DNA from: Macrostomum lignano
Lineage: Eukaryota
Reading direction: 5' to 3'
NCBI GenBank assembly: GCA_002269645.1
Contig: NIVC01000829.1
Span: 62,001-126,000, forward strand
Length of the DNA stretch: 64,000 nucleotides
Positions 2,365 through 60,478 of the stretch are shown piece after piece. The position numbers were made by a program, and so were the translations under genes. Each line of letters begins with the position of its first letter. The stretch's first letter is position 1. A model generated the notes under the pieces. That model worked only from the letters and a program-made list of their open reading frames with translations. It was not told where the DNA came from and did not search any database.

Positions 2365-4009
2365 TCCAATCGCTGTTGTACCGTTTTTTTCAGAGACTTT
2401 TGCTTTAATCTAGTAAGGTATTATTTCGAAAAAGCTCACTACTGACGCCGTTTAAAATTTATCAAAGACAAGGAGCATGTCTTTACGTTGCTAAAACACC
2501 TACAATAAAACCCCATAATTTTTCTTGCAAGGTGGTTGTAATATTAAGCGCGTGGTTATAAGTTTTCACGAAGAAAAATCAATGAGGAATTAGTTTTCAA
2601 CTATGTGAACAATTGCCACACTTGTCAACGGACGTTAGTATACTTAGTGGTCCCAGATATCATGGTACCATCTATTATAATTAGCATCCGCGCTAATAGT
2701 CAATTGACAAAATAGACAAAAATGTTGTCTAATTTTCTCAAGCTCTTCTATTGCCTACTCTCGGTATAGCTGTTTTTCTAATTTCTAATACTGTTACTCT
2801 TGTGAGTTACGTCGTAATACTGACTATGGTAACTAATGACTCTGTTTAAAAAATATATGAGGTAGCTAAGGAGCATTGTCATGATAATTATTACAATGAT
2901 AATGAAATATGTATTTTTAGTCCTTGTTTGCTGTAGATACGTCGATCGAATAAATTTTAATTTTTGTATTTTATTGTAGAGTTCACTGCGAAATGATTCC
3001 ACATTCAAACATTTACTCAAATAAAGCTTTTTTTAGAAATTTCTCTTAGCGCTAAATTTGTTGAATACATTATCAAAGCTAGCACATTAGTTCTATCTTT
3101 AACAATTAAAGCATGTGCGATTTTTAAATTTGCTTAAAACTTTAACTGTAGTACTGTTTAAAGGCTGTGTATTGTCAGTTTTGTAGTAGGTAAGTTGAAT
3201 TTACAATTCAATAAACGTGACTCGTCAGTGGAAATGTAAACTTTTAATTCGCTCTCCATGTACACGTCAAGCTATTGAAAATTTTAGCAACAATATCGTG
3301 AAAGGCACCTAAAATTGCACTAGCTACACAGACGAGGTTGAGTAACGTTTGCAATGCGTACAACCAGAGCCTGTAGTAATATAATGTATTTAAAACAATA
3401 ATTTTTTTGTAAATAGTTGTTTAAAATATTATGCATCAATATCTATGCATTAAAAACGTTCAAACATTGTTATTTTCAGTCACCTAACGATGCTGAGCAT
3501 AAACACGTTGTATGCCCAAGCGGCTTGTTCTCACAATTGCCTAAAATTTTATTTATTTTTTATATTTGTTGTTTTGTTTGCTTGTAAACTGTCTGATGAC
3601 TTTCTTATAAAAATACCAATTTTTTAAGATTTTCCCTTCGTCCGTCCGTCCAATGTTCTAGATATTGAACCATTTGAGCAGTTTTTATCTCGTTTGCGCC
3701 ATATTTATTTCTAATCTATTATTACAACTTATAATCGATAAAATAGTTAAATGTACACAATATTGATATTATTAAATTCTTTTTTATATTATTAACTCTT
3801 TCTAAATGTAGTTTTCCCGTTTTTTTGAGGTTAACTCGAAGGCAACGTTTTGTTGCCTTTGGCTGAATCTTGTTTTTAATTTTACAGATATTACATGTCT
3901 CATCAGCTAATTTTATTAAAATATTTAGTTACCAGAAAGTTTTTCGACGTGTTTGATAATTTCATTTTTAACATTTTGCTTAACTCGTAACTTTGTTCTT
4001 TATGGATAA

Positions 4010-4810
4010 TGACAAGCTGTTGAAACCCGGGGAATTTAAATCCCTGGAACTATTTTTGCATGTACTCGTATTCTAAAATCTGAGGTCAAACTCAAACAAA
4101 AACTTGCTAGTAGTTAGGATGGAGTTAAACATAAAATAGAGTATGTAAAATTAGGATTTGAGGCAAGAGATCCCAGCAAATATTTATATTGTTGGCTGGG
4201 GTGCTGCGAACAGGCAAACTCTGGCCTCCATGCCTCTCCTTATATCCCTTTCATCCTCAGAAACTTCCATCTTCTCTTCTGTTTCCTCTCTTCTCTCTCG
4301 TCTCTGTCTCTTCTCTCTCTCCTCTATCCCCTATTCTCTTGTCTATTCCTCTATTCTTTTATCCCTCCTCTCCTCCCTCCTCTCTACTCTATACTCTCCT
4401 CTCATCTCTTCTCTTCTTTCCTCTCTCCTCTCTTCTATCGTCTCCCTCACCTCTTCCCTCACCTCTCTTCTCTCTCGTCTTTGCTCTCTTATCTATCTAG
4501 TTGATCTTTGTTTATCAAAGTTTATCTTTGCTCTAGTCGAAGATTAATTGTTTCAAATTTGAAGAGGATCGGTAGAAGTGAAGCGGCGCTATGGAGGATC
4601 TAGTGAAAAAATCGCGCATTTTGAGTAGTTTTTTGCACTTTTAGGTGGGAAGACTCAGATTTAGGAAATTTTAAGGTAGCCTATGACACTTTCCGTACTG
4701 AATTTAGGGTGGGTGCAAAATTTGGTTGAGTGGTTTGGGAGTCTATAGCGAAGTAATTTGTACACAGACAGACAAACACACAGAGTTTTGATTTTTATAG
4801 GTATAGATTA
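4010..4810 (+). mobile_element. Possible non-autonomous Helitron/HINE-like element containing a CT microsatellite
   Basis: Internal CT-rich tract and a 3' end reading gtgcaaaatttggttga...acagacagacaaacacac...ttttataggtatagat, which resembles invertebrate HINE/Lep1-type ends as I recall them. Boundaries are approximate. Confidence 0.3.
4258..4495. repeat. CT-rich low-complexity tract
   Basis: Seen directly; it produces the spurious L/S-rich ORFs at 4158-4547. Confidence 0.85.
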
Positions 4811-4926
4811 TTGGTGTGTAAAAAATAGCATTTTCTAAATGACAAGTACGAGCTCCTACCTACATTTATTAGAAATGTATTATCGGAGTTTTAAAGGTTT
4901 TTCTTGACACTATATTATAGATTATT

Positions 4927-6474
4927 ATGAAAACAATGTACATAAACGCTTCAGCGATGGCAACAAAACGAAAATCAAGCGCAAAAAGCGACGAGCAGGA
5001 TCCACCAGCAAGCCGACTGTGCAGCCTCAGCCACTGCCAGAGCCCGGCTTCGGGCCGTGGACACTATTGGGCCGGGCCTCTCTGCGCTGAGCATCTCGAG
5101 AGTGACAAAGAGCAGTTTAAAAGTCGGTTCGCCAGCATTAAGAAGGAAACCGATTCGATACTCGCTAGTGCCTCGCAGCTCACAAACCGCGCTAAAGCTG
5201 CTCAATTTGAGCTGACGATTGACCGGGCTGAGGCGGCTGACCTGTTTGATGATATCCTTGAAAGAGTGAATCAGTGCAGGGAGAAAGTGCTTGGTAGATT
5301 AGACTCGAATATTGCAGATATGGAGCAGATCCAGAGGTCTCTCAGCTGTGTAGAGAAACTTTCGGTTGATATCAAGGACGCAGAAACTGGAAAGAATCTA
5401 TTGCGCAGTTATAACCTCAGAATGGAACTGCAGATGTCAGTCCCAAGCGCACTTGTTTCAAGTGATTGGGTCGATCCTGTGGACAGCAGTATTGTGCAGG
5501 TGAATAAACTACTACGGACTGTGGAGACCCAGGTCACCAATGCTGAGTCATTAAGTGACCAAGCCATGGTAGAGAGATTTAAGACGTGCCAACCAAGTCT
5601 ATCCGCCATCCACATGGATGTTAGATTATCAATTGCTTTCGTCGGTTTGTGCTACAAGACTGATGGATACTTTTACTCTGGTCAGTCGCTCTCTAAGACG
5701 TGTCAGCCTGGGTTTCAGGCCCTGCCAAGCGCTTGTGTATTCGTCTTTTGCAATTCAGGTCCGTATCCTAGATGCGTTTCAGTTTACAATTTCGATGGTG
5801 CTCTTCTCAGTCGATGGAACACTCAGTATGAAGTTGCTTCTGGCGAACTGGTGAATCATCTGCAGCAGTTTTTCCTGCTCAATGGCAGCCAGTCTTTGAC
5901 AGTGACTGATCTGGCGGGAACTCAGCTTCGCACTATTCAGCATGTGCAGCTTGGAACTGTACTCGGCCTGACTCACGACATGGACAAGCTGTACATTCTC
6001 GGACATAGTGGTGTCCAGTTCATGTCCTTGGAAACATGCGAGCTGCAGACGAAGATAAAAATATCGCATGATATTAAAGAGGCTCATAGCATCGTGCATC
6101 GAAACCGCAGTTTGATCATCACCACCTCATCGGCAGTTTATCGGATGAGTCTTAGAACTCATCAATTCTCGAAGCTGTATCAGAGCAGTGGCTCGAATAT
6201 TAGATGTGCAGCTGAACTCTGCTCAGAATTTCTGGCTGTGTGCGACAGTGATGGAAGTGTAAAAATTCTGGATGGCAACGGACGAGAGATTAAGGTAATT
6301 GAGTTGGTGTCGTTAGGTGCGAATTATTTCACTCGTTGTCAGAACTGTGGTATAAATTACCGCCTCGAGTCGGTTCGTTGCTGCAGTTTTAGCAGGGAGT
6401 CGACGAGCACTTTGCTGCTATTTCTCAGCTTGTCCTGCACCCATCGCGTTTTAGTGCGCCTCTGCATCTCCTAG
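4927..6474 (+). CDS. TRIM-NHL-like protein without RING, paralogue 2
   Basis: 515-aa ORF with the same motifs: CSLSHC..YWAGPLCAEH, RAEAADLFDDILERVNQCREKVLGRLDS, VTDLAG, LTHDMDKLYIL. Confidence 0.65.
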   Translation: MKTMYINASAMATKRKSSAKSDEQDPPASRLCSLSHCQSPASGRGHYWAGPLCAEHLESDKEQFKSRFASIKKETDSILASASQLTNRAKAAQFELTIDRAEAADLFDDILERVNQCREKVLGRLDSNIADMEQIQRSLSCVEKLSVDIKDAETGKNLLRSYNLRMELQMSVPSALVSSDWVDPVDSSIVQVNKLLRTVETQVTNAESLSDQAMVERFKTCQPSLSAIHMDVRLSIAFVGLCYKTDGYFYSGQSLSKTCQPGFQALPSACVFVFCNSGPYPRCVSVYNFDGALLSRWNTQYEVASGELVNHLQQFFLLNGSQSLTVTDLAGTQLRTIQHVQLGTVLGLTHDMDKLYILGHSGVQFMSLETCELQTKIKISHDIKEAHSIVHRNRSLIITTSSAVYRMSLRTHQFSKLYQSSGSNIRCAAELCSEFLAVCDSDGSVKILDGNGREIKVIELVSLGANYFTRCQNCGINYRLESVRCCSFSRESTSTLLLFLSLSCTHRVLVRLCIS

Positions 6475-48473: not shown

Positions 48474-48638
48474 CTGTGAATTCGGTAGGGTTAAGCTCAA
48501 TGACTATATAGTCAATTAGACAGACAAAGAAATTTTTTTCGAAAAAATACACCAAAGAGATAGAAACTTTTCATTTTTTAGCTCATAAGCTGTTATTTTT
48601 TCGATAGTAGGTAGACTCAATGATCATTTTTTTGATAT

Positions 48639-49676
48639 TGTGGCGGGTGCTTAATAATAACTGTATTCACGTTGCCTTCTTTACGCACAAATTTTGTTCC
48701 TGATAAAAACTTGACATCCATAAACGTAAAAATATTATTTTCTTAGTCATAGATATTCACATACCATTAATAATAGTAAATATGTTACTTAGTGGAATTT
48801 TTGTTTAAACATGTCCGCCATTTTTGCTGAAAAACATATAAATACAAGCGAAATAATTGACAGGAGACCATCTTCGGCCTCGTCTAGCACTCTCTGTTAG
48901 CTAGCAAAGGTTTTAATTGAGCATTGCCTGACTCACTGTTCTTTATTTAGGCGCTCAGCCCTCTCCCAAGGCCTGCTCAGCCGAAGCATACAGCCTCTCC
49001 CCCCCCCTCCCCAAGAAGGACCTGTTCAGCTATAAGCGTACAGCCTTTTCCCCCTTTCAACCCCGCAAACACGCGCAGTAATTACCTCACCCCCCCCTTC
49101 CCCAGTGAACAAGAGTTTCGTCCCTCTCTCTTCCCCTAACCCCAAACCCCAGAATTTGACCTGAAGTTCCGCCAACTCCCTATCCAGACCTACTGTTGCC
49201 CAGTTATTTGGTCGAACTCTAACTTCCGACTGACCCGGTATTCCGTTCCCCTACTTGGAAGTTTAACTATTAGAAATCTTAGCCCTCCCCTTTTCTCTTA
49301 ACAATTTCATTGAGCAGACTCTTCCCTATGAAGACATTCCCTATTAATTATTAGAAAATCCCACTGTGCGATAATCCACCAGGCAACTCTGATCCGCCGC
49401 GTAGCCCTCCCTCGGACAACTTTAATATATAGACAGTGTCTTGCCGCTCGGACACTCACGCCACCAGGAGCAACCATTGGCTTACTCCTATTAGTAATAA
49501 AACTAGCATATCTTTCAGAAATCCCAAGAATTCCATAACTTCCCCTCCCCCAAGACCCCTGTAACAGATCTTGGTAGCAACGTTGTGATTAAACCACAGG
49601 CGAAAGTTTACCCTGTAACAGAATTTGGTTGCAGCAGTGATAGGATTAGACAGAGAAGCCAAGAAGCCCTACAACA
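48639..49676 (+). repeat. 5' LTR
   Basis: Runs TGTGGCGGG...CTACAACA, with AATAAA at 49496-49501. Appears identical to the 3' LTR except for two C-run length differences. Confidence 0.97.
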
Positions 49677-49679
49677 AAT

Positions 49680-49698
49680 TGGTGGCAGCGGTGGGATT
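49680..49698 (+). promoter_or_regulatory. Primer-binding site complementary to the tRNA-Leu 3' end
   Basis: TGGTGGCAGCGGTGGGATT, 3 nt after the LTR, is complementary to ...AAUCCCACCGCUGCCACCA. Confidence 0.9.
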
Positions 49699-49762
49699 GG
49701 AATCTGGTGAAACGCGCACTCAAACCCCAGTATAATTTTCCATCCCCTATCCCCGAAATACA

Positions 49763-50731
49763 ATGGCCGCAGGAATCAATGAAGCCCTTGCGCTATTAGC
49801 TGAAGAGCTCCGCAACCGACTCGAATTAGGCCCCCTTAGACATGTGAAAATCCAGAAGTACCTTCCCAGCCAAGATATTAGAGTCTGGCTTACCGCATTT
49901 GACCAGAGATGTGAAAATGAAGGCATAGAAGAAGAAAACCGGAAGCAGGAACTGCTTACCAATCTAGACCTGAGTACTGCGTTTGCAGCAGTTCAACGCC
50001 TCAACCTCCCAGCTAATCTCCCCTATGAAGAGTTCAAAGAAAGACTAATCGAAAGATTTGGAAAAGTAGGTAGTTCCGCCGAATTTCGCGAAGAGTTTAG
50101 GAATCGCTGCCAAGGCAGAAATGAATCCACTGACAGCTTTGCCGATGCCCTGATAGAGTTAGCCTCCCGCGCATTCCTGAACATGGATGCTGAGCAGAGA
50201 GAGGAAGAACTGGTCGAACAGTTCATTAAAGGTGTGAGAACCCCTCCCGACACCCGTGAGAAGCTGATCTTTGCCCAACCGGCTAGTCTCCAAGCCGCCC
50301 GCAGAATGCTGCGCAGAATTGAAGCTGCTTATCAGATGTCCCACAAAGGAGGAATCCGAGTGACTAAGGAAGAAAAAGAGGAGTATAAAGGCAGAACTGA
50401 CCAGTTGATCATCAATCAGCAGAACCAGATTGATCGCCAAGAACGAGTCATCCAGGACTTAAAGAAGCAGCTAGCAGCGCAAAGCGCTCCGCCACCCCAA
50501 GCCTACCCCCAGCAACAGTATAGACAGCCACCCCCTCAGCAGTATAGACTGCCACCTCCTCAGCAGTACAGACCGCAACCCCAGCAGCAGTTCAGACAGC
50601 CACCCCAGCAGCTGATGAACCAACCGCCAAGACGTGAACCCCCAAGAAGAAATGAACGTCAGCCCCCTAACCCAAGATATGAGCCGCTGAAGTTCCGCAA
50701 CCCCCGTGACTCCCAGAAGTCGGGAAACTGA
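49763..50731 (+). CDS. gag: Gag
   Basis: 322-aa ORF after the PBS. Capsid-like segment (WLTAFDQRC...LIERFG...QGRNESTDSFADALIELASRAF) and a Q/P-rich end; no CCHC knuckle. Confidence 0.88.
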   Translation: MAAGINEALALLAEELRNRLELGPLRHVKIQKYLPSQDIRVWLTAFDQRCENEGIEEENRKQELLTNLDLSTAFAAVQRLNLPANLPYEEFKERLIERFGKVGSSAEFREEFRNRCQGRNESTDSFADALIELASRAFLNMDAEQREEELVEQFIKGVRTPPDTREKLIFAQPASLQAARRMLRRIEAAYQMSHKGGIRVTKEEKEEYKGRTDQLIINQQNQIDRQERVIQDLKKQLAAQSAPPPQAYPQQQYRQPPPQQYRLPPPQQYRPQPQQQFRQPPQQLMNQPPRREPPRRNERQPPNPRYEPLKFRNPRDSQKSGN

Positions 50732-53700
50732 GAAGCCAGGGTCGAGTTAAGAGGCCACGCCCCTCAGGCCAAAATTCTGCTTACTCTCCGGCCTCCCCAT
50801 CATTCGAAAATGCCCCCCAACCAAAATACCGGCAACCTCCCCAGTACGGTTTCCGTTATCCCCGCAAAACCTCCCATGTACAGCCAATGCCTGTGAATAA
50901 TGCGATATCTGTCTCCCCCAATAATTTTTCACTTCTTGCCTTTGACGAAATCGACGATGCCATGCCAAATGCCCCCCCTGACCCCCATGTGTACAATGAC
51001 CCCCATGCGACTACAGCTCACGCGACTGCTTCCCATGTAACCAATGCGATTTCTGCTCATCACGCGTCCGCACCCCATGTACCCACTGCGCTTGCACCCC
51101 ATGTATCCCATGCGATTAAAACCAATAATGCTTTATTCAGTGCTGAAACCCGCTCAAAGAAGCGACGAAAGCCAAAACCCAACTCCCCATCCCGAATCGA
51201 CCTGACTAAGCTAGAAGGTTATGAAGCTGTAATTGTCGGCGAAATCCAGAAAGAATCGATTGATTTCTTGCTAGACACAGGCGCCAGAAATAATTTCCTG
51301 AGCCGCTCAACCTGGTCTAAGCTATTCCGTGCCGATCAAATCCGAGACACTAGCAAAAGCATTAGTACATTTGACGGTACCCCAGTTCAATTAGAAGGAG
51401 AAGTATCCGCCCAAGTGAAGTTTGGCGATATCCAAATCGAAGTTGATTTCCTTCTATGCCGACATGATTGTGACAATATTCTAGGTATGGAATTTTTCCT
51501 ATCCCAATGCGAAAGCATTCAGCTAGCCAAAGGAATGCTAGTGCTTAATGAAGGTACCTGTATACCCATGCAGTATACCCGCCTCCCCGTGAAAGTTTGT
51601 CGAGTTTATACTCAAGAAAGAGTAATCATCCCAGCTAATAGTGCCCTTCGAATACCCGTGAAATTAGCCAAGAATTGTGAATCGAATTATGGCACTCCCA
51701 TGACCATTGAAGCCATTGGCGATACTGTCCGAACCCGTGATTTCTCATTAGAAATGGTTCCAACCCTAGTAACTATGAAAGAAGGCAAAGGAATTGTTGA
51801 AATTATTAACCGTCACCCAGTAGACGTGAATCTAACTAAAACTTCCCTAATTGGCCTAGCCAGACCCATGAAAGCTAAAGACCTAACCTATTGGCAAACC
51901 CAACCCCCCAGCTCCCAACCCCCTGTGAAAGTCAACCAGACTCAATGTACTGAAGATTCCTGGATTGATGAAGTGAGCCTTGGCCCTGAACTGTCGAATG
52001 AACAGCGAAAAGCAGTCATCGACTTGATGAAAGAAAACCGTGAAGCCTTTTCCCAGAATGAATTAGACATGGGCCTGACACACTTAGTAACCCACGAAAT
52101 CTCTATCAAAGACCCCACCCCCGTTAGAATCCCAGCTAGACGCATCCCCCCACACTTGCAAAAGCAAGTTGACGCCCAATTAGATGACATGCTAGCCAAA
52201 AACCTAATTAGACCCTGCTATTCAACCTACTCCACCCCCTAGTAATTGTCCCCAAGAAAGACGGTTCTATCAGAATTGTGAGCGATTTCCGAGTGCTCAA
52301 TTCAAGAGTTAATTACTACCCCTACCCCCTCCCCAATATTCAAGAGACCTTCTCCCACCTGACTGGTAGCCAATACTTTAGCAGCCTTGATTTAAACTCA
52401 GGATACTGGCAAGTCCCCATCAAAGAAGAAGATAAGCATCGAACCGCCTTCTCCACCCTAACTAGAGGCCAATTTGAATATCAAGTGATGGCCCAAGGAC
52501 TTTCCAATGCCCCTGGAACCTTCCAACGCCTAATGAATTTAGTACTATTAGGAATCCAACATAAGTTCGCCATGTCCTATATTGATGACATAATAACCTA
52601 CTCCCAAAATTTTGCCGACCATTTAGAGCACTTAAGAGAAGTGTTTAAGCGATTAATTGCCGCAGGTCTGAAGTTGAGACCCAAAAAGTGCAATCTTTTC
52701 CATCACGAGTTGAAATATCTAGGACACGTGATTGGCCGAAAAGGCATCAGAACAGATGAAGCCAAAATAGAAGCTATCAGAACTTGGCCCCGTCCCAAAG
52801 ACGTAAAAGAACTCCGCAGTTTTCTTGGCCTATGCAATTATTATTGCCGATTCGTGAAAAATTATGCCGAAGTGGCTCACCCCCTATTCCAATTAACTCG
52901 AAAAGGAGTCCAGAATTTCCAATCTAAGTGGAGCAAAGTGCATGACGAAGCCTTTGAGTCCCTGAAGCAGCGAATGATGTCCACTGAAGTGTTAGCCTAC
53001 CCCGAATATGTCGAAGACGAAAATGTGAAGATGGTGCTCGACACAGATGCCAGTGACGACAGGATTGGCGCATGCCTTGGCCAAATCCAGAGTGATGGCA
53101 TAGAGCGACCAATAGCCTATTTTAGTAGAGCAATGAAGGAATCAGAGAAGAGATACCCCATTACTCGGAAAGAATTGTTAGCCCTTGTCGACGCTATGAG
53201 GCATTTCAGATTTTATCTGATCGGCAAGAAATTCTTAGCCCGAACTGATCATAAAGCGATTATTTGGCTCATGAGACAGACAGAAGCAACCGGAATCCTA
53301 GGAAGATGGATAGAGCGCCTAAATGAATTCAGGTTCGACATTGAACACAGAAGCGGCGCAAAACATTCCAATGCCGACGGATTGTCGCGAAGACCAGCTG
53401 AGATAGCTGAAGCCCCTGAAATATCCCCTGAAGCAGCCCCCGAACTTGCTGAAACAGCACCTGAAGTCCCTGACGCAGCCACTGAGCCTGCTGAAGCGAT
53501 CCTTGAAACCCCTGAAGTATTTGAAGAAAATTTTAAGAAAATTGAGCCAATCCCTGAGAAAGTTGAGAAGTTAACCCCTGTTCCCCTGAGAGATGAGAGT
53601 GCTCCCGCTGAAACTAAGGACAACCCCATGTCCCAGTCACCTGAAGCTCTGACAGAAAGCGAGACCCAGCCTGAATATCCCGAATCTAGGATACAGCTGA

Positions 53701-55595
53701 ATGTCTCAGGTAGAGAAGTAGAAGTAGAAGAAGAGACAGGAAAGTGCGAGAAATTGTTAACTGATTATCTCCCCAGCCCCCTGAAGAAAGAACAAATCCA
53801 AGAAGCCCAAGCTGCTGACCCCATCATCAAAGCTCTGTTAGAAGCCAAGAAACAGAAGTTGAGCCAACCCCCCAAATCACCGGACGTGCCAGAAAAAATC
53901 AGCAAGCATTATGCACTGATGAAAATCGATAACGAATTATTAACAATTACTGAAGACGGAAAAGACAAAGTAGTTTTGCCCCCATCCCTAGATAAAGCAG
54001 TCTTTACCGACCTACACTGCAGCCCCCTCGCAGGACATCTAGGAAGAGATAAGACGCTCCAGAGAATCCGAGAAAGATTTTGGCGACCCGGACTGAGCAC
54101 TTCAGTTGAGCAATTAATTGCTAAGTGCATCCCCTGCCTTGAGAGCAAGAAAGGACACTTTGTTCAGGCCCCAGTCCAGTCATTCCCCATTGGCGAAGCA
54201 TTTAGCCGCCTGCATATAGATATCATCGGCCCAATCTCAAAAGAAAGTAAACGAGGTCATAAATATGTTTTAACAGTTGTTGATAGCACAACTAGATACC
54301 CCTTTGCTTTTCCCATTAGAAACCAAAAATCAGACACGGTTATCAAGATACTACTTGAACGAATAGTAGCAGAATATGGACAGCCAATGTGGATTCACAC
54401 AGATAATGGAAAAACTTTCGCTAATAAGCAATTTAAAGCTTTTTGCGAACTTTATAATATTCGCCACACCTTCACTACCCCCTACCATGCCCAATCTAAT
54501 GGACTAGTTGAACGTTTCAATAAGCAAGTCAAGTCAATCATCACCTGTCTGATCAATAAGGATCATGGTGATTGGGATTTACTAATTCCAGCAGCCCTAG
54601 TAGCAGTCCGCACCAGCCCCAATTCAACCACAGGTTTTTCCCCTCACTTCCTATTATTTGGCAGAGAAGCCACCTTACCTCTAGACACCCAGATCAGAAG
54701 TACAGCAGAACACGCTGACTATCCCGCCTACATTACTAAGCATGCCGAAAGATTAGAGGAAGCCCATAAGATAGTCAAGAAGAAGTTAGAAAAAGTAGTA
54801 GAGAAAAGACAGACCGCCGCTGAAACCAATAAGCTCCCCCCGAGAGTCCCCATAGGTTGTCTAGTTTTAATTAATAACCCCCAGTTAGATAGCGAAGAAT
54901 CCCACAAGTTCCACCGAAAGAAGAGATCCGCCTTTAGAGTTTTAGCCCAACTATCAGAAGTGGTTTTCAAAGTCCAGAAGGAAGAAGAAGGAGAATTAGT
55001 AGGAAGAGAAATGCTTGTGCATCGAGATAACTTAACTCCAGTCCCGAACTCAACCCCAGAACAAATCACTAAGGAAGGCCAGCGAGATACCCCTGATCTT
55101 GCCCCTAATTCAGCTCCCGTTCCCACTCCCGCTCCAATTCCCGCCTCTACTAAACCTAAGAGACAACCTGTAATTAAGGAAGGCCAACCCAGCCGAAATT
55201 CCCAAAAACTAACCTTGCCTGAACCAGTTGAATCTGAAGAAGAATCCGATGACGAAGAAATTAATTGGAAATGCCAAATTAGAGAAGCAGAGAATAAAGA
55301 GTTAGAAGAAGAAGATAATGAAATCCAGCCAGAAGAATGGAGTGAAGCCCAGACAGAGGAAGAGAATGAAATGACCGATGACTCAGAGAGTGAGGCCCCG
55401 AACGAAGAGATTCCTCAGCCCCAACCCCCCTCTCCTGCCCCCAAGCTCCAACCCCCCTCTGCCCCGCGAGATCCCGAACCCCCACGCCGTCATCCCTACA
55501 ATTTAAGGCCCCCACCCCAAAATAAACAGCGTTGCAACTGTCATCTAGACCGCCTACTATTAGCAATAAGATTCTTGCGCAACCTAGAGTTTTAA
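50710..55595 (+). CDS. pol: Pol (protease, RT, RNase H, integrase) in the -1 frame, with one apparent 1-nt deletion at 52235-52239
   Basis: FLLDTGA (PR); YIDDII (RT); LDTDASD and ELLALV (RH); H-x6-H...C-x2-C, LHIDIIGP, HTDNG and NGLVERFN (IN). Split between track ORFs 50887-52242 and 52278-55595. Confidence 0.92.
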
Positions 55596-55898
55596 GCCCG
55601 TCTACACCTTCCTACCCCACCCTCGCCGTCCCCATTCGCCCGACAGACCCCAAATTTTAGACAAAGAAAGCCCTCGACTAGACCCCTGCTATGCACAAAG
55701 AACCCCTCAATTTATCGATCCAGAGAAGAATGAGAGCACAAAGAACACAGAAATTGAGGTGGGTTACGAAAACAAAGAAGTATCAAATAACAGACTTAAA
55801 CGGATAGTAAATACAAAAGCTTTTGGTTGCACAACACTAACTGTCAACTCGACTTTTATCTTCCCGCTATCGATCCGAATTATACCTTGCAATCCGTC

Positions 55899-56837
55899 AT
55901 GAATCCCGAAGAACTCAAACGTCTACAAGACGAATTATCCCTAAGCGATAGCGATGATAGTGAGTTCAATGATGAGAATGAACTGCCAGCGCCAATGAGG
56001 CAAGCCACTAGGCCCAACCTACCGTGTCACAAGCCAAAATTAGCTTCAGTCGTCACTAAGCCGCCCCCTGCAGCTACGCCCAAGAAGCGCGCCCAGCTTT
56101 TGCAAAAGCAAGCTGACGCCCCAGTTCCCCTCGACCCTGAGGCCGTGCAACGTCAGCCCCCAGGTAGCAATCGATCAAAAGTGATTTCCCTGAAGGAGGC
56201 GCCGCACATAGTGAAGTCCGGTCGCCTTGGCCCACGAACTGGCTCGCCGTCACCTACTAGCGACTCCCGAGCCGCCGCCGTTTCCTCGACTGCCGACCCC
56301 AGAGAACGCTCTCGTTCGCCGATCGTAAAGCCGCCTGAAGATTACAGTATGCGGTCGCAGCATCAGCCACGGCACAGATCTTTGACCGACCCGATTGTCA
56401 AGAGCGAATCGTTTAAGGCTGAGATTCCGCCTCTGATGGCCGAACCAGCTCAGCGAGCCCAGCCTCAGCCGCCCCAGAACCTCGGCGAGTATTACAGTAA
56501 TGTAGTGGCCAATTTGCCCGACTACCAACGAGCCGAATTCCGTCATCACGTCACCACGCTGAAACTGTATCTAATTCGGGTAGCTCATTTTCGACCTGAC
56601 GGGCGCGATTTCCCTCAGCGCGAGGACGTTCGGCCCGCTCTGCGCATGTTGCGCCAAATGCCGCTGAATCAGGCCCTCGCTGCCTGGCGACGCGCCACTG
56701 TATACGCGTTGAGCGATTTAAATCGAGAACGTCGTGAGTACAACACTGAGAACGTCGTCAAAGAAGTTCAGTGGCTCGGTTACAAGTGCCGATGGCCACA
56801 CCCGGACCGGCTACCTGAAGAATTTCGCTTCATTTGA
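55899..56837 (+). CDS. Additional sense ORF3 of the LTR element, function unknown, not env-like
   Basis: Intact 312-aa ORF from ATG 55899, between the pol stop and the 3' LTR. Disordered S/P-rich N-terminus and a helical-looking C-terminal domain; no signal peptide or TM segment. Confidence 0.75.
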   Translation: MNPEELKRLQDELSLSDSDDSEFNDENELPAPMRQATRPNLPCHKPKLASVVTKPPPAATPKKRAQLLQKQADAPVPLDPEAVQRQPPGSNRSKVISLKEAPHIVKSGRLGPRTGSPSPTSDSRAAAVSSTADPRERSRSPIVKPPEDYSMRSQHQPRHRSLTDPIVKSESFKAEIPPLMAEPAQRAQPQPPQNLGEYYSNVVANLPDYQRAEFRHHVTTLKLYLIRVAHFRPDGRDFPQREDVRPALRMLRQMPLNQALAAWRRATVYALSDLNRERREYNTENVVKEVQWLGYKCRWPHPDRLPEEFRFI

Positions 56838-56980
56838 GTGAACTGAAATGCGTATATAACTGAACAGTCAAATTCGTATTTTTTTGCAATAATGTAGTTT
56901 TTTTCTTTTTCTTTTCCTAATCGTATAAATTTTTGCACTCATTAAAATTCATTTTAAAAATTTATTTCAGGAAGGCCAAT

Positions 56981-58018
56981 TGTGGCGGGTGCTTAATAAT
57001 AACTGTATTCACGTTGCCTTCTTTACGCACAAATTTTGTTCCTGATAAAAACTTGACATCCATAAACGTAAAAATATTATTTTCTTAGTCATAGATATTC
57101 ACATACCATTAATAATAGTAAATATGTTACTTAGTGGAATTTTTGTTTAAACATGTCCGCCATTTTTGCTGAAAAACATATAAATACAAGCGAAATAATT
57201 GACAGGAGACCATCTTCGGCCTCGTCTAGCACTCTCTGTTAGCTAGCAAAGGTTTTAATTGAGCATTGCCTGACTCACTGTTCTTTATTTAGGCGCTCAG
57301 CCCTCTCCCAAGGCCTGCTCAGCCGAAGCATACAGCCTCTCCCCCCCCCCTCCCCAAGAAGGACCTGTTCAGCTATAAGCGTACAGCCTTTTCCCCCTTT
57401 CAACCCCGCAAACACGCGCAGTAATTACCTCACCCCCCCTTCCCCAGTGAACAAGAGTTTCGTCCCTCTCTCTTCCCCTAACCCCAAACCCCAGAATTTG
57501 ACCTGAAGTTCCGCCAACTCCCTATCCAGACCTACTGTTGCCCAGTTATTTGGTCGAACTCTAACTTCCGACTGACCCGGTATTCCGTTCCCCTACTTGG
57601 AAGTTTAACTATTAGAAATCTTAGCCCTCCCCTTTTCTCTTAACAATTTCATTGAGCAGACTCTTCCCTATGAAGACATTCCCTATTAATTATTAGAAAA
57701 TCCCACTGTGCGATAATCCACCAGGCAACTCTGATCCGCCGCGTAGCCCTCCCTCGGACAACTTTAATATATAGACAGTGTCTTGCCGCTCGGACACTCA
57801 CGCCACCAGGAGCAACCATTGGCTTACTCCTATTAGTAATAAAACTAGCATATCTTTCAGAAATCCCAAGAATTCCATAACTTCCCCTCCCCCAAGACCC
57901 CTGTAACAGATCTTGGTAGCAACGTTGTGATTAAACCACAGGCGAAAGTTTACCCTGTAACAGAATTTGGTTGCAGCAGTGATAGGATTAGACAGAGAAG
58001 CCAAGAAGCCCTACAACA
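56981..58018 (+). repeat. 3' LTR
   Basis: Copy of 48639-49676, preceded only by a short purine run (AGGAAGG). Confidence 0.97.
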
Positions 58019-58327
58019 ATATTTTGTGCCTTTGATATTCTATTGGTATAGCTCCATTAATATTCATATAGCTTTTCATCCAGAAAATGAGGATTCTATG
58101 TTTATTTTTTATTCTATGTACAACTGTACATTCGTACATGCCATGTGCTTAAATACATTAAAATGGCACGGCTCGGCTCGGCTCGGTTTTATGAATCTAT
58201 TTTATTAGCTATTCTTATCTGACTGTGTGACAGTATGTGTAACAGAGATGATAATAGATTCCTAATGTACATAGGATAAAAAAATATAAAAAAAACCTCT
58301 CAAAGCAAAATATTTTCAGGAACATAC

Positions 58328-58794
58328 GCTTTCGTTGAACACTGAAGGAAAATTTGAACCCTTTTCTTCTGCCCGATCGGTCAGTTGCGAACTCGAGAGT
58401 GACACTGTGTGGAAAGTTTAGAACTGGCAGACTGCTAAGTTGTCCCGATAATGACAAAAGTGTGGCCGCATTAGTTTGCTGGAAATCACCGTAACTAATC
58501 TTTAAAACATCTTTGTCTTCTTCTGTATCAAACTCCGAAAAATGAATTCTGACGAAATATCCATATTGGCAATAAATGCTTTTAGCCACTTTGAAGTTGT
58601 TGGGATACTGGACTCCCCCACCGAAATTCGGATGGCTAGTCCTCCATCCGCTACTCTGTTTGATTAGCTCGGTCGAGGCTGAATTTTTTTTGCAAAAGAT
58701 CTGGCTGTTTAGAAGTTTAACTTGTCTTTGAAGAAAAAATTAGCACCGAACAGCATCAACCAGTGCACGGGTTACTACGAGTTCGTACGAGACC

Positions 58795-58863
<69 letters not shown>

Positions 58864-58879
58864 ATACTACTACTACTAG

Positions 58880-58917
<38 letters not shown>

Positions 58918-58984
58918 GTACTACTACTACTACTACTAGTACTACTACTACTAATACTACTACTACTAATACTACTACTACTAG

Positions 58985-59022
<38 letters not shown>

Positions 59023-59395
59023 ATACTCTCACCGGATATGGAGCTGATATATGACCTTCTAGAGTAATGTAACTTGATTCCGGAATAGGTGTACGATCCA
59101 TCGCTGGTAAAGTGAGCGAAGACAGGCCCTGTCAGAAAGTACTCTGAGTACAGAACATCTGAACCTGATCCTGACAAACGAAATGATTCCCGGTTTGAGT
59201 AAAAAAAATGCGTCGACCTCTCGTATATCGAAACTTTGTCATGATACGACTGAGTGCTAAACCTGCTGAATGTAATACTAACTACGCCTTGAACTTGAAT
59301 AATCCATTTAACATTTTCGTAGTTCGAATACGTGCTCCACCAAGCCGGGCATTCCATTGAGCCATAGGATGAATACTCGTGCTCGTCTGAACAGC
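58328..59395 (-). CDS. CUB-domain membrane protein, 5' part (two CUB exons)
   Basis: Phase 1-1 exons 59033-59395 and 58328-58678. CUB motifs: YSNYENVKWII..VSITFSRFSTQSYHDKVSIY...FTSDGSYTYSGIKLHY and HPNF..YPNN...IHFSEFDTEEDKDVL...FATDRSGRRKGF. The signal-peptide exon was not located. Confidence 0.82.
58797..59022. repeat. (ACT)n microsatellite between the CUB exons
   Basis: Seen directly. Confidence 0.95.
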
Positions 59396-60478
59396 CTGTA
59401 AGAATAAGAGTACGAGTATTTGTCAAAATAAGCAGAAGACGACGTAGTTTGATTTAAATGGCCCGTTTATGCTGGCGTCGCTAATCTGAGTTTTTTTACA
59501 TACCGGCTATTTGATCTAGGTAGCTGACCATTAGAAGAAACGAAATGATGGTTGCTTTTTTCAATCCAGTTCTAAAGCACATTGCTTCTATTGGGACAGA
59601 CTGTTGCACACGTATTATATTTCTGCTTTGTTCCAATTTTCCTACCTTTGCACCACAGTGAAATATGCAGATTTGTATGTCTCCAGCATTTATCAAGGAG
59701 CTGGGACGGAAGTCTGTCCGAATTTTCATGCTTATCGATTTCCTATATTTATGAATTTCTACTGCATGTATGCCTCGCAGCTATAGGAAACTCTCAATAT
59801 TACTAGGTAACTAAATTAAAGAGCGACAATTTAAAAGTTACCCAGGAAATAAATATTCATAAAGTGTCTATTTGTATTCTGAATAAATATAGTAACAGAA
59901 TGGCGCTTTGTTTAATAGGAAAGCCGTCAGATTGTGAGTGAATAACGCTCATTAAGGTGAGTTTGGTACATCTGCTCTGCAGCGCACTGCAGGCTATTGT
60001 ATATACGTTTTGACCTTAAATATAATGTACTCGAAAATTTCTTTGTAAATTAGACTATTATTCTCTAGAAAAATTAAACAGTAAATTATGAGAGGAATTG
60101 TGAGAGATTATGACAGTTGTTATACGGAAATGCGTAATAAGATTACTGAAAAACAGTTGTTTAATTAATTACATAGCTAATACACCGGGCATGAACAGTG
60201 AATTACAATGAGCGCATCATTTTTTTTAGATTCTTGATATGAAAAACTCGCCTGAGAATATACTGTAGGAAGGCCTATATAACTTATAGGGAAGTTTTCC
60301 TAAATATTGGTTAATTTGGTATTTATAATTAATCTCCTCTCCTCCTGCATCAGCGAGCAGGCAGTTGACGAAAAGCCAAGTAGCCTCGTCGCTAGAACTG
60401 TGCTCGTAACTGCAGCAACAGCATCAGCCCCTACTGCACCGCCTGTAGGCAGTAGGACTGAAAGATCTCTTTTTCTAT

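Follow-up and report, generated by a model that had tools for sequence, protein, structure and literature searches.

We analysed a stretch of 64,000 nucleotides of the flatworm Macrostomum lignano (contig NIVC01000829.1), in the following called the window. It contains a complete LTR element at positions 48639-58018, the features of which are collected in Table 1. With its LTRs, primer-binding site, gag and a pol gene in the order protease, RT, RNase H and integrase, the element belongs to Ty3/gypsy (Metaviridae). Its two LTRs align with 1037 identities, 0 mismatches and two one-base gaps, and the element is flanked on both sides by the 4-bp sequence ATAT. The position of the LTR TATA box suggests a short U3 of ~220 bp and a long R. 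The primer-binding site is one that we take to be complementary to tRNA-Leu. No CCHC knuckle was seen in the Gag protein, and pol is probably entered by a -1 frameshift at the slippery heptamer in the gag-pol overlap. A frameshift near 52.24 kb, with a stop at 52240-52242, disrupts pol in the window copy; the original prediction had missed this. As that prediction had stated, an intact sense reading frame of 312 codons (ORF3) without internal stops lies between the end of pol and the 3' LTR.

Table 1. Positions of the features of the LTR element within the window.
Feature	Position	Strand	Remark
Target-site duplication, left	48635..48638	.	ATAT
5' LTR	48639..49676	+	1038 bp, TG...CA
U3 motif TTGTTTAA	48801..48808	+	candidate response element (ORF3 or host factor), 36 bp before LTR TATA box
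YY1-like word GCCATTTT	48817..48824	+	in 7 of 27 U3s, 1.0 expected
LTR TATA box	48837..48844	+	
Primer-binding site	49680..49697	+	tRNA-Leu-like
gag	49763..50731	+	322 aa; matches Retrotrans_gag weakly (E 0.0018, below cut-off)
Slippery heptamer GGGAAAC	50722..50728	+	at gag-pol overlap
pol	50710..55595	+	protease, RT, RNase H, integrase
pol-ORF3 spacer	55596..55898	+	predicted internal promoter
ORF3	55899..56837	+	312 aa
ORF3 C-terminal domain	56472..56834	+	part of ORF3
U-rich 3' spacer	56838..56968	+	ATTAAA at 56941-56946
Polypurine tract	56969..56980	+	
3' LTR	56981..58018	+	AATAAA at 57838
Target-site duplication, right	58019..58022	.	ATAT

The ORF3 protein

The acidic start, the disordered Pro/Ser/Arg-rich middle with its RSRSP site and the helical C-terminal domain that had been described for ORF3 are all present. 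In the window protein they correspond to an acidic amphipathic N-terminus (residues ~5-22), a basic, low-complexity, RS/SP-rich linker with conserved short linear motifs (32-39, 64-75, 109-113 and 137-141) and a five-helix domain (192-312). SP/TP sites number only 4. Signal peptide, furin site and transmembrane segment had been declared absent; this holds for the first and the last, while RERR at residues 276-279 formally fits the furin motif. The best 19-residue Kyte-Doolittle mean is 0.27 for the window ORF3 and does not exceed 1.11 in any of 45 long homologues, the read-through copy L038 being left out of this set. The reported excess of GC and CpG was confirmed: ORF3 has a GC content of 56% and a CpG observed/expected ratio of 1.18, compared with 45-51% and 0.59-0.74 in gag-pol, and it lay above pol in both measures in 12 of 12 copies tested.

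The acidic character of the N-terminus is general. In all 23 lineages with a clear start the first 39 residues carry a net charge of -6 to -12, and 17 of them contain the helix motif hydrophobic-x-x-hydrophobic-hydrophobic (2.9 expected). A rule for activation domains (PMC10550315, eq. 3), the stated sensitivity of which is 36-45%, is satisfied by 9 of the 23 N-termini, and the stricter original rule by 3. With a charge of -7 the window N-terminus fails the rule by one charge, and a nuclear-export-signal pattern fits it better. Such a pattern occurs within the first 35 residues in 14 of the 23 lineages (4.2 expected), the window's family included.

The C-terminal domain (last ~120 residues) was modelled confidently as five helices (pLDDT 89.5, pTM 0.85). 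Its conserved residues are Y, R-x-D, P, L, E-x-x-W, WP and P, which include an R-x-D...P loop and two tryptophans, and its net charge is positive in 30 of 31 lineages. Pfam provided no match for the window ORF3 and only matches with E above 0.02 for 34 members; among the sequences of solved structures the best E was 0.054. A Foldseek search of the domain model against PDB and BFVD gave nothing at E <= 0.001. The best match of a VIA fold search was the Gle1 CTD (Z 7.8, rmsd 3.3, 115 residues aligned), and Cul4B reached Z 6.2 (rmsd 4.2, 108 aligned). Both scores are within the range of common helical arrangements, and the absence of a clear match is not proof of a new fold. No DNA- or RNA-binding fold was recognised in the searches of PDB, BFVD and VIA, nor was an F-type or gB-type fusion fold among the matches to this small five-helix bundle. 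A J-domain (DnaJ) identity was rejected: the tripeptide HPD is found only in the C-terminal tail of the window copy, is not conserved and comes with no DnaJ match in Pfam. In one further copy (L044:6959-8032) the last ~33 residues of ORF3 are tandemly duplicated.

Occurrence, selection and relatives of ORF3

ORF3 is a regular component of these elements. At least 86 of the 96 integrase matches with at least 70% identity are followed by an ORF3 match at a distance of 1.5-3.6 kb; for 4 of them the match lies further away, and for 6 there is none. The count of 86 is a floor, since ~120 of the 289 ORF3 matches in the genome entered the comparison. One integrase locus with no ORF3 match nearby (L115) is cut by unrelated DNA. 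A genome search with the C-terminal domain matched 139 of 150 scored candidates down to ~25% identity, and with a divergent member as query all 150 scored candidates matched. For an estimate of selection we used nine disjoint, closely related pairs that differ at least somewhat; two pairs that are identical and nine at or near saturation were excluded. The nine pairs have 17 non-synonymous and 33 synonymous changes over ~270 and ~85 sites, i.e. a dN/dS of ~0.16. ORF3 is under purifying selection. It is element-specific, occurs across divergent LTR families and has a dN/dS below 1; to look for these features with the C-terminal domain had been proposed as a check of the original prediction.

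Between families, the ORF3 tree follows the RT+RNase H tree (family A 99/98; F+G 100/100). Since the gene tracks the deep pol tree, a recent capture, one of the origins considered initially, is unlikely. That ORF3 is an env remnant, a recently captured host gene or a neutral passenger might be read from its env position and from a base composition unlike that of pol. We regard this as highly improbable and largely refuted. No signal peptide or membrane segment was found in the 45 homologues, the gene is under purifying selection and agrees with the deep pol tree, and most of the inspected full-domain copies lacking an upstream pol are followed by a polypurine tract or an LTR. The observations that might have overturned the initial assignment were looked for as well: the sister-family frames are open, no host donor gene was found and env features are missing. 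A non-env accessory protein, conserved and specific to the element, is what remains.

No ORF3 relative outside Macrostomum lignano was found in the searches of public sequence sets. A profile search of 1.84 billion representatives returned 6 hits, five of which are clusters named Macrostomum lignano; one of the 6 is identical to the ORF3 of L122. Searches of the 5.8-billion set gave no homologue of the domain, of the full-length alignment or, among longer proteins, of the outgroup domain. The ESM Atlas gave nothing, or weak TPR-like leads below the recognition mark. Two metagenome hits were rejected as relatives, being chance matches by profile score.

Within the genome a sister clade (L091-L095, L103, L131-L160; RT 61% identical) carries an acidic ORF3 of 240-290 aa with 85 matches. 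Its domain is a probable remote homologue. It aligns along its length to that of the window type with an hhalign probability of 68% (E 4.9e-5, 101 columns), or 21% when a wider alignment is used, and is modelled as a similar helical bundle. A more distant clade (L096-L102, L161-L174) has an ORF3-like tail that is mostly in frame with pol and has only short motifs in common with ORF3; here hhalign gave probabilities of 0.1% for the domain and 7% for one motif.

Extra reading frames as such are a known kind of gypsy feature; the ORF3 family and the regulatory cassette proposed below are new and unusual. Bdelloid rotifer LTR elements carry ORF3s that encode captured enzymes (GDSL, DEDDy) or env (PMC5408684), and TRP28 of plant Retand elements comprises antisense frames with a proposed regulatory role (PMC11963269). 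Both lie between pol and the 3' LTR like the gene studied here, which unlike TRP28 is a sense frame and which has no Pfam match to any of them. The env gene of Oikopleura Tor3b/4b elements is transcribed from a promoter inside the element, which lies in or behind pol (PMC4402516); this is likewise a gypsy third gene with an internal promoter (for ORF3 a predicted one), but it encodes a membrane glycoprotein, whereas ORF3 is soluble. Flatworm env elements are described with the order gag-env-pol (PMC13524379). For Macrostomum lignano itself, Ty3/Mdg4 families of the Mag, CsRN1, Gmr1/Osvaldo and Mdg3 clades have been catalogued (PMC12801592), in a main text in which the terms 'ORF', 'accessory', 'non-autonomous' and 'internal promoter' do not occur.

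Expression of ORF3

Splice signals ahead of ORF3 had been taken to suggest a subgenomic RNA. The branch-point-like CACTAAC is indeed found at 55835-55841, and there is no AG from 55820 until 55910, but this AG is located after the ORF3 ATG (55899). The branch-point word is not conserved, a conserved acceptor is missing, and in the window copy the interval from the conserved upstream box to the start codon lacks an AG. The start codon itself and the N-terminal motif of ORF3 are conserved. Judged by the conservation of branch-point word, acceptor, ATG and upstream boxes, a spliced origin of the ORF3 mRNA is not supported. Public contigs from eight runs, which cannot show transcript starts, contained no canonical splice joint into ORF3.

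The spacer contains promoter-like elements instead. Four sister families have CCAAT boxes together with a TATA box 70-110 nt before the ATG, an arrangement that was equalled by 0, 1, 0 and 0 of 500 shuffles. The CCAAT-TATA pair is absent in 6 of the 10 copies of the shuffle test, the window among them. Over 26 copies, a TATA-like box 60-200 nt before the ATG was found in 18 and a CCAAT box in 11; in groups F and G, 14 copies have a further word directly before the site of the TATA box. In the window spacer a CCAAT box is lacking and the TATA-like box, TAAATACA at 55808-55815, is weak; it is accompanied by an ACGAAAA box at 55766-55772 and by TTGCACAA at 55827-55834. These three boxes recur at near-fixed spacing in 8 of 9 copies of the window's family. 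Because acceptor and branch-point word are not conserved, while the ATG is, and because TATA and CCAAT boxes precede it, an internal promoter fits the data better than splicing. ORF3 is thus likely transcribed from its own predicted internal promoter, a reading that is weaker for the window's family than for the sister families.

Behind ORF3 the U-rich region with its ATTAAA is present as had been described. Tandem repeats of ~24 bp are located between the ORF3 stop and the polypurine tract in L062, L074, L065 and L066; a scan of 30 regions detected strong tandem repeats in L062 and L063 only.

Old ORF3 types on a shared gag-pol

Copies whose RNase H is 96-100% identical to that of the window have ORF3 domains that are only 41-55% identical to it, compared with 79% for copies of the same type. 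Synonymous divergence between types is 1.4-3.2 or saturated for ORF3 versus 0.07-0.39 for RT/RNase H. The 30 copies of the window's family fall into 7 ORF3 types. Likeness between and within types is nearly the same for gag (0.93 and 0.92), RT (0.93 and 0.95) and RNase H (0.95 and 0.96), but drops from 0.82 within to 0.46 between types for ORF3 and from 0.75 to 0.61 for the first 150 bp of U3. The end of integrase is intermediate, and it is ORF3 together with its 3' spacer and the beginning of U3 that goes with the type. On the RT+RNase H tree the types are not clustered (66 of 200 shuffles were as low). In the LTR the first ~700 bp are mostly unalignable between types and the last ~340 bp are common to the family. 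Single copies deviate: L078 has the window's ORF3 type and a different first 150 bp of U3, and L042 has LTR bases 398-907 in common with the window. A type-bound ORF3 on a shared backbone is also seen in families F and G and hence in at least three families.

Pairwise counts provided no sign of positive selection on ORF3, dN/dS being low and synonymous sites being saturated between types. Saturated synonymous sites, low dN/dS and unclustered types point to the swapping of old cassettes rather than to fast adaptive change. The pattern, as read from the alignments, is that of old cassettes comprising internal promoter, ORF3 and U3 that are exchanged onto a recombining gag-pol. The pairing of ORF3 and U3 may reflect plain linkage together with a lack of homology for crossing over and would then involve no functional coupling.

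Many deeply diverged types on one backbone would also be expected from an arms race, in which ORF3 would act in anti-silencing or counter-defence, either like VANC or by antagonising a small-RNA or chromatin protein of the host. The conserved short linear motifs would suit binding to host proteins, and tandem repeats are present behind ORF3 in a few lineages (L062, L063). VANC proteins of Arabidopsis VANDAL DNA transposons, which diverge together with their targets (PMC5735166), provide a precedent for an element-encoded factor that diverges between related elements along with non-coding DNA. As described there, that system concerns plant DNA transposons, DNA methylation and tandem target repeats; most ORF3 lineages are without repeats, and we found no homology. 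Given also the missing positive selection, we consider a counter-defence role unlikely, noting that it overlaps with an activator role if derepression is specific to the LTR.

Elements without pol retain ORF3

We identified 13 elements with a truncated Gag derivative, at most 160 last codons of pol and an open ORF3 domain, in which no RT, RNase H or integrase core was found. The LTRs of 12 of them are 98.6-100% identical. All 9 elements with resolved ends have 4-bp target duplications, which indicates that they transposed in the pol-less form. Among the 12 in which it was inspected, ORF3 is full-length in at least 9 and has its N-terminal part out of frame in 3. Across types the middle parts resemble one another, whereas the ORF3 and LTR of a given element match the same autonomous family (for instance in the pairs L121-L107, L124-L108, L127-L109, L119-L117 and L129-L106). 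The Gag derivative is under purifying selection (dN/dS ~0.12-0.14). It has ~200 aa and consists of the N-terminal half of Gag and a new C-x2-C...H-x-C tail (L068, L069, L118-L127, L129). One element (L129, oriented 3652-5850) contains an inserted ORF of 733 aa that by eye resembles a DNA transposase.

That these elements borrow Pol but keep ORF3 agrees with an ORF3 function tied to the type of LTR. A general suppressor of silencing, which could be borrowed in trans, would not need to be kept. Alternatively, these elements may owe their ORF3 to recombination events that captured the 3' end time and again.

Retention of both ORF3 and the conserved truncated Gag would also suit a particle or integration accessory, the domain of which works with Gag or integrase in assembly, nuclear entry or target choice. 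The similar tail of the more distant clade, mostly fused in frame to pol, points in the same direction, but its hhalign probabilities (see above) are very low, and the ORF3 types are uncoupled from gag and integrase and coupled to U3. We hold this role to be decidedly improbable.

LTR motifs and candidate sites

The words upstream of the LTR TATA box were examined in 27 U3s. The motif TTGTT(W)1-2AA occurs on the sense strand in 22 of them (36 seen versus 4.7 expected), at fixed distances before the TATA box. Of 22 internal promoters, 6 contain it as well, with 7 occurrences compared with 1.6 expected. It is almost absent from ten outgroup copies and is missing from the sister-clade LTRs. Its spacings to the TATA box cluster with a period near 9.2 bp rather than 10.5 bp; the rows are related and this is not counted as evidence. 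The motif, which is common to different types, may bind ORF3 or a host factor, in the latter case perhaps of the Sox/Fox type. The label YY1 in Table 1 is our assumption. Words that we take to be E2F-like are seen in the U3 of 8 of the 27 lineages (14 seen versus 4.0 expected); together with the CCAAT boxes they hint at the use of a cell-cycle programme. Type-specific words common to an internal promoter and its own U3 were not found in excess (p 0.43, 25 own versus 600 other pairs, words with fewer than 3 G/C being left out), and Rfam detected no structured RNA element.

The type-specific part of the LTR reaches well into the inferred R, as would suit a protein that acts on RNA. ORF3 might be an export adaptor like Rev or CERV, which binds the element RNA at its U-rich 3' end or R and exports the full-length RNA via the leucine-rich signal in its N-terminus. 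The enrichment of the signal pattern and the basic RS/SP-rich linker agree with this. The pattern is, however, absent in 9 of the 23 lineages, no conserved splice acceptor precedes ORF3 that would cause a retention problem, and a structured element was not among the Rfam results. The precedent is CERV of the C. elegans element Cer1, an export factor made from a spliced mRNA (PMC10309623). It is, like ORF3, a non-env accessory protein of an animal gypsy element with phospho-sites and a candidate export signal; it differs in being large and three-domained, whereas ORF3 is a single uninterrupted frame with one small domain behind a predicted promoter. On this evidence an export function is rather unlikely.

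ORF3 as a candidate activator of its own LTR

The acidic N-terminus, the basic domain and the predicted separate promoter together would fit a nuclear activator of the matching LTR type, comparable to foamy-virus Tas and encoded by a non-env third gene with a likely internal promoter of its own. We give this reading slightly less than even credence. Activation of the own LTR appears to fit the anatomy somewhat better than the anti-silencing, targeting or chaperone roles that had been considered originally. In such a mechanism the internal promoter would make ORF3 first. The target of the basic five-helix domain would be either the promoter region of the LTR or the nascent RNA at its 5' end, with the U3 motif TTGTT(W)AA as one candidate site, and the acidic amphipathic N-terminus would recruit co-activators, whereupon full-length RNA would be made as with Tas. 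If the activator is type-specific, recombination could spread a common gag-pol among elements whose ORF3-LTR cassettes remain separate, and elements lacking the enzymes could borrow Pol while keeping their own ORF3.

In foamy viruses Tas is made from the internal promoter and activates both promoters (PMC12789967). Going by that source, Tas/Bel1 and ORF3 have in common the location of the frame between the enzyme genes and the 3' LTR, the internal promoter and the anatomy of an activator, the latter two being predicted for ORF3. Differences are that ORF3 resides in a Ty3/gypsy element without env, that many types co-exist on one gag-pol, and that ORF3 has no sequence or fold match in Pfam, PDB or BFVD. 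That no site common to the internal promoter and the own U3 was detected argues against the likeness, since Tas acts on both. Activation of cognate copies by an element-encoded protein is also described for transposases (bioRxiv 10.64898/2026.08.24.746577).

It is characteristic of complex retroviruses to encode transcriptional activators that have a promoter of their own. If the activator reading is true, regulation of this style arose separately in a simple LTR element. A wider scenario, which we find doubtful as a whole, is that a gypsy lineage evolved a Tas-like private activator independently of retroviruses as a specificity key. Ancient ORF3-LTR pairs would be kept on a shared recombining gag-pol like self-recognition alleles, and a long-lived satellite lineage with truncated Gag and no Pol would repeatedly capture such keys, switch itself on and borrow the enzymes. 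In a literature search, mostly outside subscription papers, we found neither an earlier description of the ORF3 gene nor a gypsy counterpart of a self-encoded activator with its own promoter. Whatever the function of ORF3, the analysis yields a new protein family without a clear fold match, clearly shows for at least three families that old cassettes are polymorphic on a homogenised backbone, and identifies a satellite lineage that keeps the accessory gene. LTR reporters have been used before in Macrostomum lignano, a transgenic laboratory model (PMC12801592), which makes the function directly testable in the host.

Further observations at the locus

The last ~40 Pol residues (55476-55595; Y-N-L/T-R ... 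C-x-C-x-L-x-x-L) are kept across several families, whereas the preceding stretch is not. Just outside the element, beside a TAC microsatellite, there is a reading frame on the minus strand (58740-59453) that looks CUB-domain-like by eye. The LTR end (49553-49676 and 57895-58018) consists of tandem modules, each comprising an LTR end and a degenerate primer-binding site. Such arrays are also present in L031, L034, L036, L042, L046, L050, L075 and L080, where the number and order of modules vary by copy; they may have arisen by repeated mis-priming or may serve as decoys for tRNA fragments.
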